Made by a program: the position numbers and the translations under genes. Under the pieces are notes generated by a model. That model made no database searches and had not been told where the DNA came from. It was given only the letters and a program-made list of their open reading frames with translations. Of a DNA stretch of 12,308 nucleotides, positions 1,705-12,308 are shown piece after piece. Origin of the DNA: Rotaria sp. (taxonomy: Eukaryota); the NCBI GenBank assembly GCA_905250055.1, contig CAJNOF010000061.1, forward strand, positions 326,484-338,791, in the 5' to 3' direction. The first letter of the stretch is position 1. Every line of letters begins with the position of its first letter.

Positions 1705-1901
1705 ATGCATTCATCAACTACAACTGCAACGACATCAAATAAAGGAGGTTCAAGTCCATTATATCGTATACCACCTTATTATTATATACATGTTTTGGAT
1801 CAAAATACAAATGTAACACGACTTGAAGTTGGTCCAAAAACATTTATTAAACAAGACAATGAAACAGTGACAGTTGGACCAGAAAAAATGATAACAGTAC
1901 C
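1705..1901 (+). CDS. MVP: Major vault protein, exon 1 (M..ITVP, phase-2 end)
   Basis: ATG at 1705; translation [52 protein letters not shown] matches the MVP N-terminus ([32 protein letters not shown]). Donor is cc|GTACGT at 1902. Confidence 0.88.
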
Positions 1902-1963
1902 GTACGTATATTATTCTAGAAGAAAAACATAAAAAATAAATAATTATTCTAAATTATGTTTAG

Positions 1964-2132
1964 ACCACGTCATTATTGTGTTGTTGAATCGCCTGTCGTA
2001 CGTAATGAAGCAGGAGTAGTTCAATTTGATGGAAATGGTCAGGCTAAACTTGTTCATGCTGACTTGGATGTTCGTCTTGCACAGCCTGATCAAGCACCAT
2101 TTCCACTTTATCCCGGAGAAATTCTTCGTCAA
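1964..2132 (+). CDS. MVP: Major vault protein, exon 2
   Basis: Acceptor is tgtttAG|a at 1962-1963. Completing the Pro codon gives [11 protein letters not shown]...[22 protein letters not shown], matching MVP PPRHYC...[21 protein letters not shown]. Donor is caa|GTATAA at 2133. Confidence 0.88.
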
Positions 2133-2202
2133 GTATAAAAATCAATATATTTTTTGTTCTGTACTGTTATGTTTTCAATATTTTATTGTTTTCTTTTTTC
2201 AG

Positions 2203-2511
2203 CCAGTTACTCCTCTAAAAGTTGTACCAGCTAATTCAGCCTTACGTTTGAAAGCTATACTTGATTTTGATGATGAGACAACAAAAGAAAAACGTCATGC
2301 TGGTGATGAATGGTTATTTGAAGGACCAGCTACATATATTCCACGAAAAGAAGTTAGTGTAGAAGAACAAATTCGTGCAACTGTTATTGGTCCGAATCAA
2401 GCTATTCGATTATGTGCAAAAAAAGAAATCATTGATCGAACAGGTCAACAACGTGTTACTGGTGAAGAATGGTTAATTAAAAAAAATGGTGCTTATTTAC
2501 CACTTGCATAT
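2203..2511 (+). CDS. MVP: Major vault protein, exon 3
   Basis: Acceptor is ttttttcAG at 2201-2202. [50 protein letters not shown] matches MVP repeat domains. Donor is tat|GTAAAT at 2512. Confidence 0.88.
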
Positions 2512-2573
2512 GTAAATGAAATTCTTTTTTCATCAAAGTTTTATTTTATTAATTAAATATTTCATTGTTCTAG

Positions 2574-2840
2574 GAAACCGTTCTTGCTGTTGAAAATGCT
2601 CATGTTTTAACAGATAAAAAAGCTCTTCATCTTCGTGCTCTAAAAACTTTTACAGATGATTTTGGTAAACAACGTATGAATGGTGAAGAATGGCTAATAA
2701 CTCTTAAGGATACTGAAACACATATTCTTAGTGTTTATGAACAATTAGTTGCTGTTGTTGATGTAATAACACTTAATTCACGTCAATATTGTGTTATTCT
2801 TGATCCAGTTGCTGATGGAAAACCACAATTGGGAAAAAAG
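2574..2840 (+). CDS. MVP: Major vault protein, exon 4
   Basis: Acceptor is gttctAG at 2572-2573. [46 protein letters not shown] matches MVP ([42 protein letters not shown]). Donor is aag|GTTTGT at 2841. Confidence 0.87.
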
Positions 2841-2862
2841 GTTTGTCATGATAGTTTTATTT

Positions 2863-3431
2863 TGTGAAACACAATCTAACAGGAATGTTGAAGTATATGG
2901 GTAGAAATTTGAACTTCTACTCCGCCCGCACAGACATGACGAATATCATAGCAATAATTCATTGCAGATAGAGATGTAAGCCGATGCATTTCGACTCAAC
3001 AATTTTCTTAATTTTGAGAGATTCTGAAATGAAAAAAGAAAAAAAAGGATAGTAGAGAACTTATTGGCAAGTAACCAGACAGTAACATTTTCGAAAACTG
3101 ATTTGAGACGTCAAAAATTTTCAAAAAAATCAAACATCTATTTTTGTGGCACGGTGACGTGACTCAATTGTTAGAGCATTGGCTCAGTCGATCAATTTGC
3201 ACCTGTAATCACAGATTTGACAGTTACGTTAGAAACGGCTCATCACAGAACATGATAGACATTATTCATATATGACCAAAGACTGTTTATCAATAACCTC
3301 TGGTTACAATATATGAACCATTTCCTTAGTACGCTTCTGGAAAAGGATGATGAAGAAATGCATGTACCCAAAATAGATAGAATAAAATAACTTTCATGTG
3401 ATTATTAATAGCAATGGCATCGTGTTTCACA
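2863..3431. mobile_element. 569-bp MITE-like non-autonomous element inside MVP intron 4, with terminal inverted repeats TGTGAAACAC(A/G)AT
   Basis: Left end tgtgaaacacaatc at 2863 and right end atcgtgtttcaca at 3419-3431 are inverted copies. No coding capacity is seen. Intron 4 is 652 bp versus 56-72 bp for the other six MVP introns. A related truncated copy lies at 5880-6060. Confidence 0.65.
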
Positions 3432-3492
3432 TTTTAATCCTGTAGGACTTAAGCTAACAATGTTTTTTTATTTGAATTTATTTCTTGTTTAG

Positions 3493-3677
3493 AAACTTAT
3501 TGTTGGTGAAAAATCATTTTTTCTTCAACCAGGTGAAAAACTCGAAAATGGTATTCAAGATGTTTTCATCTTGGGTGAAGATGAAGGTGTTATTCTTAGA
3601 TGTATTGAAGCATTTCATGATGAACAAGCTGGTACTAATAGAAATCCTGGTGATCGATGGATGATTCGTGGTCCAAC
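3493..3677 (+). CDS. MVP: Major vault protein, exon 5
   Basis: Acceptor is tgtttAG at 3491-3492. [41 protein letters not shown] matches [38 protein letters not shown]. Donor is ac|GTAGGA at 3678. Confidence 0.85.
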
Positions 3678-3744
3678 GTAGGAGCTTGATTTGTGTTTTG
3701 TTTTTGTTTTTGAAAATTAAAAAATCTTAATCTTTTATTTTTAG

Positions 3745-4711
3745 TGAATATATTCCTCCAACACAAGTTGCAGTTGTGACACGTCGAAAAGCAATACCTT
3801 TAGATGAAAATGAAGGTATTTATGTTCGTGATATAAAAACAGGTCGTGTACGAGCTGTTATTGGTGAAACTTATATGTTAACACATGATGAAGAACTTTG
3901 GCAAAAGGAATTACCTAAACAAGTTGAAAATTTACTTACACGTGATCCATTAGCTGAACGAAATATGCTAACTCGTAATCAAGCATCGGATAGACCTCAA
4001 CAACACGCAGCTACTACTATACAAGCAGCAAGTACACTATCAAGTACAACTGCACGTGATAATTCAAAATTAGTTACTTATCGTGTACCACATAATGCTG
4101 CTGTACAAATTTATGATTATAAATCTAAAAAAGCACGTATTATTTTTGGTCCAGAACTTGTCATGCTTGGTCCAGATGAACAATTTACATTACTTTCATT
4201 AAGTGGTGGCAAACCAAAAAAACCTAATCAAATTCAAGCACTTTGTTTACTTCTTGGTCCTGATTTTTTTACTGATGTTATCGTTATTGAAACAGCTGAT
4301 CATGCCCGTCTATCACTTCAACTTTCATATAGTAAATTGATGAATTATAATTTATTTAATATTCTTTATTTTACTTATTTAGATTGGCATTTCGAAGTGA
4401 AGGATATGAAGGATGAAAAAGAAACAGAAAAACTTTTTTCAGTTCCTGATTTTGTTGGTGATGCAGCTAAAGCAATTGCATCACGTATTCGTGGTGCTGT
4501 TGCTGGAACTCAATTTGATGATTTTCATAAGAATTCAGCACAAATTATTCGTGCGTCAGTATTTGGTCTTGATGCAAATCAACATATAAGAGATCAATTT
4601 GTTTTTCCACAAAATAATCTCGTTATTACATCAATTGATATTCAAAGTGTTGAACCAGTTGATCAACGAACACGTGACGCACTTCAGAAAAGTGTTCAAT
4701 TAGCTATTGAA
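3745..4711 (+). CDS. MVP: Major vault protein, exon 6 (shoulder/cap-helix region)
   Basis: Acceptor is ttttAG at 3743-3744. [152 protein letters not shown] is near-identical in motif order to vertebrate MVP. Donor is gaa|GTATGA at 4712. Confidence 0.9.
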
Positions 4712-4767
4712 GTATGAATAAATTAATTGATTTATTAGATCATAAATATATATAATAAATTCTTTAG

Positions 4768-5008
4768 ATAACAACAAATTCACAAGAGGCTGCAGCTAAA
4801 CATGAAGCTTCACGTCGTGAACAAGAAGCTAAAGGTTTATTAGAACGTCAGCGTATTAAAGATGAAGCCGAAGCTGAAGAAGTTCGAAAACAACTTCTTC
4901 TATTGCAAGCTGAATCAGCTATTGTTGAAATAACAGGTCAAGCTAAAGCTGAAGCACAAAGTCGTGCTGAATCTGCTCGAATTGAAGGAGAAGCCGGTGT
5001 TGAACAAG
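4768..5008 (+). CDS. MVP: Major vault protein, exon 7
   Basis: Acceptor is tctttAG at 4766-4767. [38 protein letters not shown] matches [52 protein letters not shown]. Donor is caag|GTACAA at 5009. Confidence 0.87.
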
Positions 5009-5080
5009 GTACAAAAAAAAACATTATAATACATATAGTAAATATTTAAATAATGAATTTTTTTTTCTTCTTTTCTATAG

Positions 5081-5481
5081 CTACTCTTAAAGCCAAAGCC
5101 GCACAAATTGAATCTGAATCTGAATTATTACGTCTAAAACTAGCACGTGAAGCTGAAATAAAATTTTTACGAGAAAAAAACGAATTAGAAATTAGTAAAA
5201 AAGCTGAAATCTCAAGAATTGAAACAGAAAAATTTAAGTCACAAGTTGAATCCATTGGTGCATCAACAATACAAGCCATTGCCACTTCTAGTTCAGATAC
5301 ACAAGTTAAACTTTTACAAGCACTTGGTCTTCAATCAATGTTAGTTACTGATGGTCATACGCCAATTAATCTTATGGGATTTGGGCAAGCTCTTTTAGGT
5401 GATTTTGCTGGTAGTCCAATTAAAAAAAGACGATTATCAACTGGTGTTTCGAATAAATTTAATGTCGAAGAAACTGAGTAG
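5081..5481 (+). CDS. MVP: Major vault protein, exon 8 (C-terminal coiled coil; stop TAG 5479-5481)
   Basis: Acceptor is ttttctatAG at 5079-5080. ATLKAKAAQIESESELLR..KFKSQVESIGASTIQAIA..TQVKLLQALGLQSMLVTDGHTPINL matches MVP [61 protein letters not shown]. Confidence 0.87.
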
Positions 5482-6060: not shown

Positions 6061-6819
6061 GATTAAAGTAAAAAAACGGATGGAGAAGTTCGTCTCAAGA
6101 TACATGAAAATACAACGATCATCGTGTAAATAGCTATGATAACTACATTGTATTTCAGATTTCAATGCCGTAGAGATTACTTTAGTAGCTTTTCTAGTGG
6201 TTTCGATGTTGGTCTATTATTGAATCGACGACTAGCTCCTTTTTCGGGCTTATCTCTTTTGAATTATGTTCTGATGCATCTCACTGATACGTTCATTCTC
6301 TTAAAACTATAGAATATTCCACTATAATCTTTAATTTCGGTTGGAACAACTTTTTTTCTCGTAGTTGTCAATATGTTTATAGAAGAATTTTTTCAGGAGT
6401 TGGCTAATTCGAATTCGAATATAAATGAAGAGCCTGTTGCTTGCTATCGATTCGAGAATAAATGCTAAAGTAGAAATCGAAACGTTTATGTACAATAGAT
6501 ATAGATAGGAGTAAATTGAGCTTTTATTCTCTTGCATTTATAATTTATATATAGGGGTGAATTGCAAAATTATTGTACCGTTATATTCTTATATGTAAAA
6601 GTTCAATATCTCGAGTTCTTCTCAGTCAATCTCTATGATTTTTTCAGGTTAGATTTCTCTAAGAAGTCCTCACTACCACACAAAAAAATCACAAATTTCA
6701 TCTTGAACTAATCTAGAGATATTGGATGCGTAACGTATAATAGATCGATTTTTACTGTCGCCTATAAGGAAAAAGTCATATAACCGATTGGTTCCTTCTT
6801 AATTGAACTTCAGAATTTT

Positions 6820-6862
6820 GCGGGCGTGGGTGTGGATGGGTGTGGATGGGGTGTGGGTGTGA
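6820..6862 (+). repeat. Degenerate telomeric-type repeat tract, G-rich on + strand (GGGTGT/TGTGGG-like with GGATGG variants)
   Basis: gcgggcgtgggtgtggatgggtgtggatggggtgtgggtgtga. Confidence 0.75.
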
Positions 6863-6885
6863 GACTTCTCCGGATGTCGGTACTC

Positions 6886-6960
6886 ACCCGCACATCCACG
6901 CCTACACCCACCCACATCCACACCCACCCACACATCCCACACCCGGCCACACCCACACCC
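6886..6960 (-). repeat. Degenerate telomeric-type repeat tract, C-rich on + strand (ACACCC-like); head-to-head with 6820-6862
   Basis: acccgcacatccacgcctacacccacccacatccacacccacccacacatcccacacccggccacacccacaccc. The reverse complement is a (GGGTGT)n-like tract that includes gtggatgtgggtgggtgt. Confidence 0.78.
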
Positions 6961-7285
6961 AAAATCAAACTCATAATGTTTTCGTTGTTTTCTTTCGTTC
7001 TCACCCAAAAGAAAAAAAGTAAAGTATCCAACGCATTGGCACTCAAATAATTCAATAGATGAAAAACAAACGAAAATTGGACAGAATAACAATGCAATTG
7101 CTAATGTTATTGGCAACCATATAATTAACTGCAACTAGGTAAAGTTTGTCTTAAGTGTCAACGAAACAAAAAAAACACATCCACATTTAATGTCGTAGAA
7201 AAATTTAAAAAAAGAAAGCCAACATCGAATTTATTTAGAAAAAACGAACTTTATTAAAATAGCAATTCACTGCGCAGTATACTCT

Positions 7286-7351
7286 CACTAATCGACGATC
7301 TTGTCCTATTCTTTCCAGGTTCTTGTTTTTCTTTACTTTCAGACAAGATTC
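7286..7351 (+). repeat. Left terminal inverted repeat of the 7286-8713 element
   Basis: See the element call. It begins CACTA. Confidence 0.75.
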
Positions 7352-7665
7352 CTGTATTCAGGCAAGATTCTTTTCGACAGGAAAGTAAAAAGAATCTTGT
7401 CTGAATTTCAAGATGACAAGAATCTCGTCTGATTAATCAGAAATAAAAGAATCAGGCAAGAATTATAAGATATTCAAGATATATTTAACGTTCAGACAAG
7501 ATTCTTGTTAAAAGAAAAGATAAAGAATCTTGTCTGAAGTTCAAGATCAAAAGAATCTTGTCTGAAAATTATGACAAAACAGAAACTGGAAAGAAATATA
7601 AGATATTTTAAATTTCTTAGTATTCAGACAAGATTCTTATGATAGAAAAGAAAAAGATTCTTGCC
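7338..7665. repeat. Left subterminal array: at least 9 copies of CAGACAAGATTCTT and its complement, several paired as hairpin-forming inverted repeats, interleaved with TTCAAGAT spacer motifs
   Basis: Examples: ttcagacaagattcttgttaaaagaaaagataaagaatcttgtctgaa at 7490-7537 (15-bp stem); aagaatcttgtctgaa at 7390; aagaatcttgtctgaaaa at 7549; cagacaagattctta at 7624. Confidence 0.8.
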
Positions 7666-8439
7666 AGCTTTTCAAGATCAACAGCACGTGATGTCGTCTT
7701 TGTATGATCAAATATATAAAGGCAATGTCTGAATGTTATTTATTCATTATTTCAATTGGATGTATAGAAAAAGTTTCCATTCGATATCGAGAAAACAGTG
7801 GAATATATGATATCTTTTTTTCCATTGTTTTCAGAAAACTTACACTTATTAAACACATTTCGATATTTTACCAATCCACATCTTTCTATTTTATTTTTTT
7901 TAGATTTTCTTTCATTATCCACAAAAGTGTTTTTTTAATGGACGAAGAAAATATTGATTCCATCAAAAAATTATTGTTTGATAATGTTCTTGGTAGTATA
8001 GGTAATATCTATATGCACTTTATATCTTTTTGATTAAAATACTATCTTTTTTAGTCATCACCACATACAGATAAACAACGTCGATGGCGTGCTAAGAAAA
8101 AAGATCAACATCATCGTACTCAATTATCTCTACATCATTTACTAATTGAACAAATTGTAAATAACTTATTTTAATCGAGCTAGCTCAACACACAACGATG
8201 ATGAAGTTTGAAAAAATAAGTATTTTTTTTGATAATTAAAATTTTGTTTTTTTTTGTATTAAAAACTGACACTGCTTTAACAACATGTGAAATTAAAAGT
8301 ATTTTTTTGTTTTTTTTTACATTTGTTGTACATAGTGTGCAAAGCTTATAATAAAACGATATGAAAAAAGAGTAATAATAACCTACAAAAGGCTTTTTAA
8401 TGTGACCAGAATTAGGCACGAAACACAAGAAATAAGAAA

Positions 8440-8661
8440 CAGACAAGAATTTAAGAAAAAAAGAATCAGGCAAGTACATCAAGAAAAATAAGAATCAGAC
8501 AAGAATTCAAGAAAAGCAAGAATACAAGAATCTTGTCTGGAGAAGAACTTCTTGCCTCACCAGCCAAGATTCGGTCTACACGAATCTTGTCAGAAAGGCA
8601 AGATCAGTTTTTTCAGGCAAGAATCTTGTATAGAAAGAATAGAAAAAGAATCTTGTCTGAA
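8440..8661. repeat. Right subterminal array of the same motif family (AAGAATCTTGTCTG, CAGGCAAGAATCTTG, AGAATCAGACAAGAATT variants)
   Basis: aagaatcttgtctgg at 8526; caggcaagaatcttgta at 8614; aagaatcttgtctgaaaacc at 8648; cagacaagaatttaag at 8440. Confidence 0.75.
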
Positions 8662-8713
8662 AACCAAGAAAAACAAGAACCTGGAAAGAATAGGGCAAGA
8701 TCGTCGATTGGTG
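8648..8713 (-). repeat. Right terminal inverted repeat of the 7286-8713 element
   Basis: Reverse complement matches 7286-7351 with 4-5 mismatches. Confidence 0.75.
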
Positions 8714-8748
8714 CTATTATGGATTAAACAACAGAGTTTTCGTTTAAA

Positions 8749-10104
8749 ATGAATCAACAACGACGGCGACAAATGGCTGAAAATTACTTAGTGATTTGGG
8801 TCGACGGCAATATCAATATGGCAAACGAACATTGCCAAAACACACTCACACAATTGTGCGGTGTTGTTAATGAAGTCAATCAATGCACCACCGCCGAAAA
8901 ATGTATTGAGACGCTTCAAGAAAATAGTGAGAAGACATCATTTGTTATCTCCTCTGGTGCACTTGGCCAACATCTCGTACCAGAAATTCATGGCATGCCA
9001 AAATTAGATGGCATTTATATCTTCTGTGGCAACAAACAACGCCATCAAGAATGGGCCAAAAATTGGTCAAAAATTAAAGGCGTTCATACATCCATTAAAT
9101 ACATCTGTGAAAAACTGGCAGTGGCTATTAAACAATGTGATCAAGATCAGGTAACTGTTAGTATTATTGACATCAATGAAGGAGATGCTAGCGAAAATCT
9201 CAATCAGCTAGAACCATCCTTCATGCATACACAAATATTCAAAGAAATTCTCCTTGATATGGATCATGGCCGACAAGCCATCAAAGATTTGGTCAAGTTC
9301 TGTCAAGAAAAATATCAAGGCAATCGTAAAGAACTCAAATTTATTCAAGAATTTGAACGTACCTATCAATCAACATTGGTGATATGGTGGTATACACGCC
9401 AATGTTTTACAAACAAAATGCTTAATCGAACATTATGAACGCTCGATAATGACATTATTATCCGAATGGGTTTTTATTTATGTGATGTCCATCGGCAAAT
9501 TAAAGATTTACACAGCAAGCAAATCAATGAATACCATGGTAAGACATTTCTACTTTATCGGGGGCAAGGATTATTGACGGCAGACTTCGAAAAAATCACG
9601 AAAAACAAAGGTGGACTTATCTCGTTTAATAATTTGTTATCCACCAGTAAAAATCACGATGTATCCCTCGGGTTCGCCAAGGACGCCTTAGAAGCAACAG
9701 ATAAGGTCGGTGTTCTTTTTCGAATGACCATCGACCCCACCGAGTCTTCGACTCCATTCGCTTCCATTCGAGAGCTGAGTGATTTCGCACAAGAAGATGA
9801 AATTCTCGTCTCTATGCATACAGTTTTTCGAATTGGTGACGTTCGAGAAATTGACAAGAAAAGTCCACTTTATGAAGCGCACCTTAAACTTACAGTAGAT
9901 GATGATCAACAACTCCGTCGATTAACCGATCGTATACGAGAAGAAACATTAGGTAGTGCTGGACGGTATCGAATGGGTCAATTGCTGCTCAAAATAGGTC
10001 TATTCGCCAAGGCCGAAGAATTATATACCGCATTACTAAAACAGGCATCGGATGACAGTCATAAAGCATTTATCTATCGTCAGCTTGTGGCCTGTGGGGG
10101 GTGA
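8749..10104 (+). pseudogene. Intronless gene for an N-terminal ~230-aa unknown domain fused to an R-S-E-clade ADP-ribosyltransferase domain and the first helix of a TPR region; interrupted by one in-frame TGA (9436-9438) and 3'-truncated at a telomeric-repeat junction
   Basis: ORFs 8749-9438 and 9466-10104 are in the same frame, separated only by the TGA at 9436-9438 (...KMLNRTL*TLDNDIIIRMGF...). ART motifs: FLLYRGQG (Arg codon 9559-9561), LLSTSKN (S-T-S 9640-9648), AQEDEILVSMH (E-x-E 9793-9801), with spacing typical of cholera-toxin-like/C3-like ARTs. The C-terminal ...AEELYTALLKQ..KAFIYRQL is TPR-like and stops at LVACGG immediately before the telomeric repeats. Confidence 0.8.
9436..9438 (+). 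other. In-frame TGA stop inside the ART gene; reading frame and conserved sequence continue on both sides (likely CGA(Arg) to TGA)
   Basis: tta TGA acg ctc gat aat gac att att atc cga atg ggt. The downstream frame continues into the ART catalytic domain without a frame shift. Confidence 0.8.
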
Positions 10105-10210
10105 GTGAAGAAAATATTGACAGTCACATCCTAATTTTATACAAAAACATTGATAAGATTCACAGTTTTGTTATCAATCGAATATTAAAAAAAAATTTAT
10201 TAGACAGTAT

Positions 10211-10318
10211 AGGGTGTGGGTGTGGGTGTGGATGTGGGTGGGTGTGGGTGTGGGTGTGGGTGTGGGTGTGGGCGTGGGTCTGGGTCTGGGTCTGGGGTGT
10301 AGGTGCGGGCGTGAGTGT
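10211..10318 (+). repeat. Telomeric-type (GGGTGT)n tract, G-rich on + strand, about 108 bp with variant units (GGATGT, GGGTCT, GTAGGTGCGGGCGTGAGTG tail)
   Basis: agggtgtgggtgtgggtgtggatgtgggtgggtgtgggtgtgggtgtgggtgtgggtgtgggcgtgggtctgggtctgggtctggggtgtaggtgcgggcgtgagtgtga. The hexamer TGTGGG is the repeat reported for bdelloid rotifer telomeres. Confidence 0.85.
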
Positions 10319-10335
10319 GAAACAAGATGATAGTA

Positions 10336-10360
10336 CACCCACACCCACGCCCACACTCAC
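10336..10360 (-). repeat. Short C-rich telomeric-type tract (ACCCAC...) opposing the 10211-10318 G-tract
   Basis: acccacacccacgcccacactcac. Further short G-rich (10398-10414 gggtgtgagtgtggggt) and C-rich (10441-10450 acccacactc) remnants follow. Confidence 0.7.
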
Positions 10361-10999
10361 AATTTATCATTGGATCTTGTTGATCAAGTTGAATAATGGG
10401 TGTGAGTGTGGGGTATAGTCTTGTGCTCACTGACTCACATACCCACACTCTTAAGGACTTTAGGAGTGCATAAAAAAAAACTATCTGAGTTTTCCGGAAG
10501 CTCAAATAATGCATCACTTCCAGATCTTATATGTCCCTGTAGAAACTATCACGAATGATAATCGAAATGTCTAAGAGAAACATAGATAAACGCATAATTT
10601 TCTCGGCACAGATGAGCAGTTTTAAGCTTCGTGGAGAAGCTCTTTCGTCGTTAGTTATGCATCGATATTCTCATCCTCTAATGATTCCTATTTGGTTTGA
10701 TCTATAAAAACCATTCTCTTCGTTTTTATCCGATGTTCTTCAGGTAGTCACAAACTATCAGAAGGATCTGTAAATATACGAAAAGAAAACATGTGATCGT
10801 TATTGCTTAAAATTGTGGTCCTAGATTATGAGAGCGAAATGACCGGTTTTTTTGTGTGTTTACACGCGTTTTCAGCCCTGATAATTGCTTGATATATATC
10901 ATGCACAATTTGTGCAGTTGTTGCCATTCACGTGTTGACATCTATGCATTAGTTTCAAAATGAACATGATCGAATCCATTAGTGATCTTGGTTTCTTTT

Positions 11000-11009
11000 A
11001 TTTATTTCG
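11000..11009 (-). terminator. Candidate polyadenylation signal (AATAAA on - strand) for the E2 gene
   Basis: The + strand ttttatttattt reads aaataaataaaa on the - strand, about 185 nt downstream of the E2 stop codon. Confidence 0.25.
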
Positions 11010-11189
11010 AAAGATAAAATAGTTTCATCTATGAAGAGAATTTTCAACTACAAAACAGAATTCTTGTTTATAGAAGACGAAAAAATAGAGAAGGTTTATA
11101 TTTGAAAGATAGATATCAGGAGGAAAAAAGCTTTTGTACGTAACAAAGCTATTTTCTGTCCAGAAAGAAAAAAAAATATCGGATTATTT

Positions 11190-11278
11190 TTATGATCGAG
11201 GTAATCCATTCTTCTGGATCATTGCTGTCGCCTTTCGTTCATATTCAGCTCGGTTTTGTATAAATTCTTTAGCGATGT
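11190..11278 (-). CDS. Ubiquitin-conjugating enzyme E2, exon 3 (C-terminal helices; stop TAA 11192-11190)
   Basis: Acceptor is ttgttatAG at 11280-11279 on the - strand. DIAKEFIQNRAEYERKATAMIQKNGLPRS* aligns with E2 C-termini ([27 protein letters not shown]; RAD6-type NKREYEKRVSAIVEQ). The total CDS is 531 nt, about 176 aa. Confidence 0.7.
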
Positions 11279-11330
11279 CTATAACAAAGTAAACAGCAAA
11301 AGAGGCAATAGGCTACTATTCAGAACAAAC

Positions 11331-11459
11331 CGGCATTCACTGGACCATCTTCAGGTTTAGGATTATCAAGAGCGTCGACAATAATCTGAAGAACTTCTAT
11401 CAAAGTTGTTTGATTGTTCCACGTTCCAGTAAGAGTCAGACGATTATCACATAATCGAT
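11331..11459 (-). CDS. Ubiquitin-conjugating enzyme E2, exon 2 (catalytic Cys): NRLCDNRLTLTGTWNNQTTLIEVLQIIVDALDNPKPEDGPVNA
   Basis: Acceptor is ttgtgtAG at 11461-11460 on the - strand. HPNVNEK|NRLCDNRL matches HPNINSNGSICLDIL including the active-site Cys. W and ...LL.DPNP.DP are conserved (DNPKPEDGP). Donor is g|GTTTGT at 11330. Confidence 0.72.
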
Positions 11460-11547
11460 CTACACAATAGAAAAATAAATATAAAACTGATGATATCATT
11501 AGCAACCTTCATTTATTTGCTATTTCTCAACAATAAATTTTGCTTAC

Positions 11548-11860
11548 TTTTTTCGTTAACATTTGGATGATAGATTGGTGTCACTATGACCACTTCAGGT
11601 GGTTTCATTGGATATTCTGGTGGTAGATGAATTTCAATTCGAAGAGCATGATTTTTATAGATATTCGATGTTAGTTCTAATCGTCCAATGATAACATTTT
11701 GAGCATAATCCTTGGGCAATTCATCTTGCGAATAGTCGAATGAAGAACTTTCATAAGTAAACTTGCCTTTTTTTAGTTTATTATTTTCACCCAATAATTT
11801 GACATCAGTCAATTCTCTCCAAAGTTTCTTATTTAACGGACTCGGAGCAGCTCCTGCCAT
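11548..11860 (-). CDS. Ubiquitin-conjugating enzyme E2 (UBC fold), exon 1: MAGAAPSPLNKKLWRELT...HLPPEYPMKPPEVVIVTPIYHPNVNEK
   Basis: ATG at 11860-11858. LPPEYPMKPPEVVIVTPIYHPNV aligns with the canonical E2 core FPxDYPFKPPKVxFxTxIYHPNI. Donor is AAAA|GTAAGC at 11547-11542 on the - strand (phase 1). Confidence 0.75.
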
Positions 11861-12308
11861 AGAAGGAATAAAAATAATACAATCTGAAAAGAATACAATA
11901 CAAATAACGTCTCTGTACATTTGTTAGATTTAAAGAGAGAATTTCATGATGATTGATTGTATTTTTGGAAATTTCTGCATGTGTGTATGGGCTTTTTGTT
12001 CTATGAAAGAAATGAAAAAAGGTAACTCTTTATGATTAATGTACATGTATTTGAAAATTTGCAAACAATCTTTGCATCACACTTTCAAATGGCCCCTCTT
12101 CAGTTGATGATTTGTTTTTTTTCGTTTCTTCTTGCTATTTAAGTCTCTGATTTTTTGAAAAAAATATTCATTCGGAATACTTAAAAGTTGATACTCTTCA
12201 CTGAAAAAAAATGGTACGATACAGAACCAAAAAAGATATTTTGAACGAAAAAAAGGTTTCGTACATAGTACGGAATCTAAAAAGGTTTCGAATTCGTTGC
12301 AATTCTCT

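Follow-up and report, generated by a model that had tools for sequence, protein, structure and literature searches.

A truncated ART-TPR pseudogene between head-to-head telomeric repeats in Rotaria: a candidate record of fused neotelomeres

Introduction

The human 2q13 site is a fusion-type interstitial telomeric sequence. Short interstitial telomeric sequences of other kinds are described in vertebrates, where they were inserted by telomerase during double-strand break repair (PMC7215372, PMC8537989), and in cancer genomes both 'fusions of neotelomeres' and telomere-spanning arm fusions have been reported (PMC11293586). Fosmids from bdelloid subtelomeres contain short telomeric stretches together with genes for tetratricopeptide repeat (TPR) proteins (PMC2861651). 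In the bdelloid Adineta vaga, interstitial telomeric repeats have been discussed as a possible fusion signature (PMC8494291), and telomeric repeats with Athena fragments at deletion breakpoints have been read as neotelomere formation that leaves scars (PMC13564844). Here we describe a stretch of 12,308 nucleotides from Rotaria sp. (GenBank assembly GCA_905250055.1, contig CAJNOF010000061.1, positions 326,484–338,791 of the forward strand), referred to below as the window and numbered from its first letter. The window contains a disabled gene of the family in which ADP-ribosyltransferase (ART) domains are followed by TPRs, and the gene fragment lies between two units of inverted telomeric repeats.

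Results

The central feature of the window is what remains of an intronless ART-TPR gene, a non-functional 5′ piece of about two-thirds of its length (8749–10087, plus strand; codons 1–446), which comprises the N-terminal region, the ART domain and the first TPR-like unit. Translation of 8749–10140 gives a single frame of 451 codons with one internal TGA (9436–9438) and a terminal TGA (10102–10104). A search with the conceptual protein found 1589 relatives, the top match (E 7.8e-245) having 83% amino acid identity over 99% of the query; bdelloid members of the family in the database number well above one thousand. The best relatives are proteins of 720–790 residues from Rotaria sp. Silwood1 and Silwood2 (80–83% identity), in which ART domains are followed by many TPRs. 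The genes for the homologs P0002, P0004 and P0001 are single exons. With five full-length homologs as queries, tblastn gives an ungapped alignment of 446 residues over 8749–10086 that spans the internal stop. The Pfam matches of the window protein alone, to ART and ADPrib_exo_Tox over residues 279–371, are weak and fall below the gathering thresholds. In an alignment of the window protein with 11 homologs, R271, S298-T299-S300 and E349/E351 are kept; the columns of R271, S298, T299, S300 and E351 are invariant and that of E349 is nearly so. The fragment has the R-S-ExE residues of arginine-specific ARTs as its putative catalytic set.

The gene carries three lesions, namely a nonsense codon, loss of the TPR array past 10087 and a polymorphic transposon before the ATG. 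The nonsense codon is a TGA at codon 230 (9436–9438, plus strand), upstream of the catalytic residues, and replaces an invariant arginine; the column is Arg in 11 of the 11 aligned homologs (..LNRALRTLDGD..). The codon for this arginine differs between genes: CGA (L001), CGT (L002) and, in the closest paralog L005, AGA. TGA is one substitution from an Arg codon, and judging from these codons a C>T change at a CpG is likely, not certain. The identical TGA is present in three assemblies (the window, L011 and an island in L008), and NCBI annotates a product of 229 residues in both L011 and the L008 island. Its recurrence in the L008 island and in L011, which was assembled independently, excludes a sequencing error. 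As the catalytic residues are downstream of the stop, the 229-residue product is no enzyme.

The second lesion is a truncation. DNA identity to three paralogs (84–87%) ends at 10085–10087, and similarity of the protein is lost after Leu446 (..IYRQL/VACGG), at the start of the second TPR-like unit. Past Leu446 the homologs read QLG.LK..QGQYKEAASYYE and continue with another 200–340 residues of TPRs. The C-terminal array of five to eight TPR units of the family is missing from the window, with about 300 codons gone; tblastn with the five full-length homologs located no TPR-coding remnant in any frame across the whole window. A weak telomere-like stretch, TGTGGCCTGTGGGGGGTGAGTG (10086–10107, plus strand; score 7.5), lies on the breakpoint and contains the terminal TGA and a chance GTGAGT. 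Non-tract sites that score like it number five in 12.3 kb. It is followed by 104 nt of AT-rich filler (10108–10211), identical in L011. Nothing similar to the filler turned up elsewhere in the window, among 14 related loci or among metagenome contigs, and it does not match the 3′ flanks of the homologs; an apparent match of GAAGAAAATATTGA to position 7948 is at the null level. The exact break junction has no match in the metagenome contigs. A natural short isoform was considered and rejected, as P0011 (463 residues, annotated as ART-only) is a TAA mutant with TPRs in frame beyond the stop and the other short members are flagged as partial. In P0011 (Rotaria sp. Silwood2, L007 6380–7500), the downstream in-frame TPRs are annotated as a separate gene.

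The ART fragment is bracketed by telomeric repeats on both sides, between a major vault protein (MVP) gene and a ubiquitin-conjugating enzyme E2 (UBC) gene, and both junctions are head-to-head. The left unit consists of a G-strand tract (6822–6863, plus strand), which abuts the MVP 3′ flank and is the same in L008–L010 and 84 nt longer in L011, a unique spacer (6864–6890) that all four homologous assemblies share, and an inverted C-strand tract (6891–6961, minus strand) that forms the left boundary of the ART fragment. The right unit consists of a G-strand tract, (GGGTGT)18 (10212–10319, plus strand), identified by Tandem Repeats Finder (TRF) and pattern searches and degenerate toward its 3′ end, a spacer of 15 nt (10320–10334) and a C-strand tract (10335–10361, minus strand), right after which homology to Rotaria sordida starts, at 10362. 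A related spacer occurs in the second haplotype described below. A piece of 36 nt separates the right C tract from an older, smaller head-to-head unit (10397–10450; G tract 10397–10412, spacer, C-like tract 10436–10450) that is conserved in R. sordida. The polarity around the ART fragment, C-strand repeats on the left and G-strand repeats on the right, is what a free linear DNA with two capped ends would show. The repeats are not a present chromosome end; the contigs that contain the locus are 203–404 kb long, and it is more than 50 kb away from their ends.

An earlier note, made from the letters of this DNA, had described a single frame over 8749–10104 with one TGA at 9436–9438 in a dead ART-family gene, and had expected homologs to continue with TPRs. 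The translation, the ungapped tblastn alignment across the stop, the 1589 relatives, the stop at an invariant Arg and the 200–340 residues of TPRs, for which the window has no coding sequence, all agree with this. The note saw identity lost about 15–20 nt before GGGGGTGAGTG, which fits the end of paralog DNA identity at 10087, and no sign of a selenocysteine insertion sequence (SECIS), for which a search of Rfam gave no match at E ≤ 1. It asked for homologs that end naturally at this position; the apparently short ones do not. Of its two explanations of the stop, the CGA-to-TGA transition holds as a one-base change of a conserved Arg codon, the C>T itself being likely and not certain (L005 has AGA), and the sequencing error is contradicted by the three assemblies. 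Its placing of the telomeric tract from 10095 has to be corrected to 10212–10319 by TRF, so the truncation does not fall exactly at the telomeric junction and the break is 124 nt from the tract. Nor are the repeats a chromosome end, since the tract is interstitial and is followed by the C tract at 10335–10361 and an ordinary gene.

The arrangement of the two units recurs elsewhere in Rotaria. In an orientation census over 111 kb of non-redundant Rotaria loci, adjacent tract pairs were G>C in 13 cases, C>G in one case and same-strand in none, the sole C>G pair being that across the 36-nt piece between the two units. Further units are present in L011 (16483–16529 and 17134–17183), L001 (5517–5571), L002 (2156–2251), L012 (3307–3366, 9223–9299, 9438–9531 and 14555–14585) and L014 (45–225). 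The spacers are unique and 4–40 nt long, and the local density is about one unit per 3–5 kb. The intact homologs L001 and L002 have such a unit a few hundred nt upstream, and L002 also has a G tract 617 nt past its stop codon. Two proposed regularities were rejected: a GTGAG variant marking the spacer-proximal end of the tract (10/26 vs 6/26) is not convincing, and an ACAAGA motif shared among spacers is equalled in 628 of 2000 shuffles. Rfam gave only sub-threshold miRNA-like matches at 6818–6957 and 10250–10365 (24–34 bits, gathering scores 61–100), which arise because inverted telomeric tracts can fold into hairpins. There is no Rfam match to a hammerhead ribozyme and there are no tRNAs in the window.

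R. sordida (L012, with L014 as an allele) provides an outgroup for the right-hand side. Its homology to the window (87.7%) extends over 10362–12198 and has its left limit precisely at the C tract (10361/10362). Left of this limit comes the 3′ end of another ART-TPR gene of R. sordida, intact and only 38% identical to P0001 (the closest homolog of the window gene), and further left are more G-spacer-C units and a 7tm gene but no MVP gene. From this comparison, the right-hand unit appears to coincide with a synteny breakpoint. Since the homology ends at the tract edge and a distant paralog lies beside it, the unit would join unrelated segments rather than be a scar formed in situ. The small unit of Rotaria sp. 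Silwood1 at 10397–10450 has a conserved counterpart in R. sordida (L012 6327–6378); such units are therefore heritable and old and can persist across speciation.

The structure is polymorphic and reproducible. The Long haplotype, that of the window, retains 446 codons and recurs in L011, which is identical over 7169–11655 save 1 nt. The left flank of L011 is 1.2% diverged and its left tracts are longer, and it therefore confirms the Long structure independently. The Short haplotype is found in three Silwood1 assemblies (L008–L010), whose flanks are 98–99.5% identical to the window. It lacks the transposon and keeps 29 ART codons, with (GGGTGT)n directly abutting ..NEDC; L008 11975–12096 corresponds to window 8714–8835, as do the equivalent parts of L009 and L010. 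Telomeric repeats are thus directly at the breakpoint in Short, at codon 29; in Long, the weak 22-nt stretch is followed by the 104 nt of filler. Window positions 8836–10211 are absent from Short, whose C tract is longer and is followed on the right by 257 additional nt; Long lacks these 257 nt and part of the C tract (27 nt vs about 88–94 nt).

Two further observations concern these segments. The 257 nt specific to Short (L008 11500–11757, minus strand, in window orientation) code for the N-terminus of a B-box-like zinc finger, interrupted by a stop (METRTESNLCSICNKSSAAFFCTGCKKYFC and then the stop). R. sordida shares only the last ~70 nt or so of this piece, a further gene fragment in the patchwork. 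Within the ART coding sequence, 8841–8851 is a C-strand telomere-like 11-mer, ACACACTCACA, for which the L008 island has ACACACCCACACA. The 11-mer begins six bases past the Short-haplotype cut and is inverted with respect to the G tract that follows there.

The haplotypes are not uniformly diverged. The window tracks the left flank of the L008 type (zero differences over 6500–7234) and is of the Long/L011 type from 7235, the switch lying within 7169–7234. From 7235 the haplotypes show 6 differences in 51 nt (7235–7285) and 7 in 122 nt (8714–8835), vs ~0.4–1.8% in the flanks. At the differing sites Short has the family-consensus residues and Long has derived residues. The L008 island is a Long-type ART piece (window 8745–9983) located beyond the UBC gene between single 'n' characters at 8357 and 9599. 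It looks like a haplotype-specific contig put there by a scaffolder, and its position is unreliable.

The third lesion is a non-autonomous DNA transposon of 1426 nt (7286–8711), 37 nt upstream of the ATG, which its terminal motifs suggest to be CACTA/CMC-like. Its termini are CACTAATCGACGATCTTG.../...CAAGATCGTCGATTGGTG, with terminal inverted repeats (TIRs) of about 66–73 nt, and many AAGAATCTTGTCTGAA subterminal repeats occur in both orientations. The insertion, into TACT[CT]ATTATTG, is flanked by a 2-bp CT target duplication (7284–7285 and 8712–8713). Empty sites are present at the paralog L005 and in the other haplotype, L008. As the element is absent from the other haplotype and from the paralogs, the insertion is recent and polymorphic. 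Its open reading frame (ORF) of 109 residues has no Pfam match, there is no transposase ORF, and no second copy was seen in the fetched loci. The ART 5′ flank in which it lies (6962–7285, plus strand) is conserved with the paralogs over 7065–7285 (86% to L005) and locus-specific over 6962–7064.

The neighbouring genes are ordinary. The MVP gene on the left is multi-exon (1706–5481, plus strand, limits approximate) and the UBC gene on the right (11190–11860, minus strand, limits approximate) encodes a protein 99% identical to one of Rotaria sp. Silwood1. We assign the window to this bdelloid rotifer, Rotaria sp. 'Silwood-1'. In the metagenome-derived rotifer contigs L003 (10001–15107) and L004 (3932–12409), MVP is followed by a second, inverted, diverged and convergent MVP copy, which the window does not have. 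Synteny via these MVP relatives is uninformative, since MVP there adjoins the inverted copy. At the right edge of the window, homology with L008 and L009 breaks at 12261. L009 2271–2381 is an inverted copy of window 12199–12308 located ~320 nt further on, another rearrangement or repeat boundary.

Discussion

We consider it probable, with some reserve, that chromosome breaks at this locus were capped by telomerase, that the capped ends were later joined, leaving scars of fused neotelomeres, and that the right-hand break removed the TPRs. A piece of DNA with the ART fragment would have been capped by telomeric repeats at both ends, with C-strand repeats on the left and G-strand repeats on the right. 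Each capped end would then have been joined head-to-head to another capped end, that of the MVP side on the left and that of the UBC side on the right, and the joins, as fused neotelomeres, would have left two internal scars in which a G tract is followed by a short spacer and a C tract. The break on the right, inside the gene, would have taken away the TPRs, and the 104 nt of filler may have been added before or during capping. Later deletions into the repeat tracts would have given the two haplotypes, Long (446 codons) and Short (29 codons). An abrupt end of homology and G-strand polarity directed away from the retained DNA, by which healed breaks are recognised, are both present here. The proposal of the earlier note, that the gene was broken and healed by telomere addition, is still the best mechanism of origin, one that we infer, with the difference that the repeats are internal today. 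The note had identified the nonsense stop and the truncation of Long; the transposon as a third lesion, the bracketing on both sides and the different, much deeper truncation of the second haplotype had escaped it.

Several observations weigh against capping and joining. In Long, 124 nt separate the break from the true tract, and what lies on the break itself resembles the telomeric repeat only weakly; the chance of such a site falling on the breakpoint is roughly 1–2%. The origin of the filler is unexplained. Neither an empty site nor a pre-break ancestor of this ART copy was found, which leaves no means of telling a capped free fragment from a resident gene in which two breaks fell. At the Short junction, an internal deletion rather than a healing event may have ended within a tract that already existed, and by extension the same may hold for the Long one. 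To judge by the switch within 7169–7234, the window would be either a haplotype mosaic or a true recombinant. The sharp rise in divergence from 7235 hints at gene conversion, a non-allelic origin or ectopic recombination with a paralog. All the assemblies used are drafts.

The internal deletion just mentioned would have acted on a full-length gene upstream of an older G-spacer-C unit and, with one of its ends in the fragile region of repeats and palindromes, would have deleted the TPRs and left filler at the junction, with no telomerase healing at 10087. We regard this as unlikely, though it deserves serious weight: the intact gene in L002 has a G tract 617 nt past its stop and a unit upstream, the differences between Short and Long are as expected for deletions that end inside tracts, and filler with a weak 'seed' fits end-joining with templated filler equally well as it fits healing. 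The filler, however, matches the 3′ flank of no homolog, the breakpoint has a G-rich, telomere-like stretch in the correct orientation, and the homology of R. sordida ends exactly at the tract edge with a distant paralog as neighbour. Ectopic repair, which we think improbable, would start from a Short locus in which a break was repaired by copying a truncated, telomere-capped paralog complete with transposon, TGA, filler and tract, the homology being provided by the shared 5′ region on one side and by telomeric repeats on the other. The step from ~0% to 6–12% divergence at 7235, inside the 220-nt block shared with paralogs, would be one switch and the telomeric tract would hold the second; the consensus residues of Short and the derived ones of Long agree with this. 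No donor copy was found, however. The exact 229-residue product occurs on two contigs only, of which one is shown to have the same arrangement and the other, in L008, is the scaffold-placed island. Ectopic repair would moreover account for the polymorphism and not for the original truncation.

That the arrangement was created during assembly, by joining unrelated contigs via telomeric repeats and the shared ART 5′ region, is very improbable. The left flank of the window is of one haplotype and its centre of another (switch within 7169–7234), and the ART piece of L008 lies elsewhere between single 'n' characters, as such joining would produce. L011, however, an independent assembly, has the identical Long structure despite a different left flank and longer left tracts, the G and C tracts of each unit are linked by a unique spacer, the Short structure is alike in three further assemblies, and one unit is conserved across species. 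That the gene is alive, its TGA read through or decoded as selenocysteine and GTGAGT at 10101–10106 used as a splice donor to TPR exons, is scarcely credible. The terminal TGA does lie within GG/GTGAGT, a good donor consensus, and the ratio of nonsynonymous to synonymous divergence (dN/dS) vs paralogs is ~0.2. The close homolog genes are all single-exon, however, and there is no TPR coding in the remaining 2.2 kb in any frame or elsewhere in the window, for which reasons an intron at 10101 was rejected; the TGA aligns with an invariant Arg, and Rfam gives no SECIS-like match. The dN/dS is low because the divergence accumulated prior to inactivation. A lineage-specific nonsynonymous to synonymous ratio (N/S) of 1.84, considered as a signal of relaxed constraint, is in the same range as that of the paralogs and is uninformative.

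If capping and joining is extended beyond this locus, the G-spacer-C units of Rotaria would be a general, heritable signature of germline breaks in which both DNA ends were capped by telomerase and then re-ligated, either with each other or with capped ends from elsewhere. We offer this extension tentatively, as a possibility on which we lean slightly to the side of doubt. The units would then mark places where synteny breaks or genes are truncated, outlast speciation and stay fragile, giving rise to haplotype-specific deletions. This locus would in that case preserve, naturally and in fixed form, neotelomeres of the transient kind recently proposed for the repair of bdelloid chromosomes, and the units would allow past events of breaking and rejoining to be counted across the genome.

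The pseudogene itself is ordinary, since the bdelloid family is very large and has other broken members (P0011), in a genome where damage of this sort is common, and the neotelomere phenomenon is already known in outline for bdelloids. The interest is in the context, a base-pair view, in two haplotypes and an outgroup, of telomeric repeats beside truncated genes inside chromosomes. The strict orientation of the units, the bracketing and the coincidence with a synteny break are a more interesting result than the pseudogene. If the units are fused neotelomeres, they would be scars that can be counted, left by the break-cap-rejoin cycle that is thought to go with resistance to desiccation and radiation. 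Such scars would make it possible to map earlier chromosome breaks and to ask whether the joins move gene fragments.

In comparison with known systems, the window gene is alike to the bdelloid ART-TPR family (PF01129/PF03496, then TPR_10/TPR_12 arrays) in its N-terminal region, in the R, STS and ExE positions and in being intronless, and differs in its premature stop, the absence of a TPR array and the transposon in its leader. The element at 7286–8711 has the 5′-CACTA...GTG-3′ termini, long TIRs, subterminal arrays and 2-bp duplication of non-autonomous CACTA/CMC (EnSpm-Mirage-Chapaev) elements, and no transposase ORF. The order of seed, 104 nt and tract has the same-strand pattern expected of Athena elements and Terminons, although the filler matched nothing and has no long ORF; no Athena sequence was recognised in the window, where no direct comparison with an Athena reference sequence was made.

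The telomeric units themselves can be compared with three kinds of described sites. The vertebrate short interstitial telomeric sequences are alike in being short internal telomeric runs read as scars of break repair. They are unidirectional with conserved flanks, whereas the runs here point both ways and homology of the flank does not extend past the unit. Fusion-type interstitial telomeric sequences share the facing arrays, which here too would join formerly non-neighbouring segments, the ancestral unfused state having been recovered here for neither flank; compared with the fusions of cancer and human chromosomes, the arrays are tens of nt long with spacers of 4–40 nt, numerous, and germline rather than somatic. 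As in bdelloid neotelomeres, (TGTGGG)n of the correct polarity lies by a truncated gene and the truncation varies between haplotypes; unlike them, the repeats are internal, in head-to-head pairs, fixed in the germline, in another genus and 124 nt from the break. On these comparisons, the locus appears to agree with the reports of neotelomere scars in bdelloids and to resemble the 'fusions of neotelomeres' of cancer genomes.

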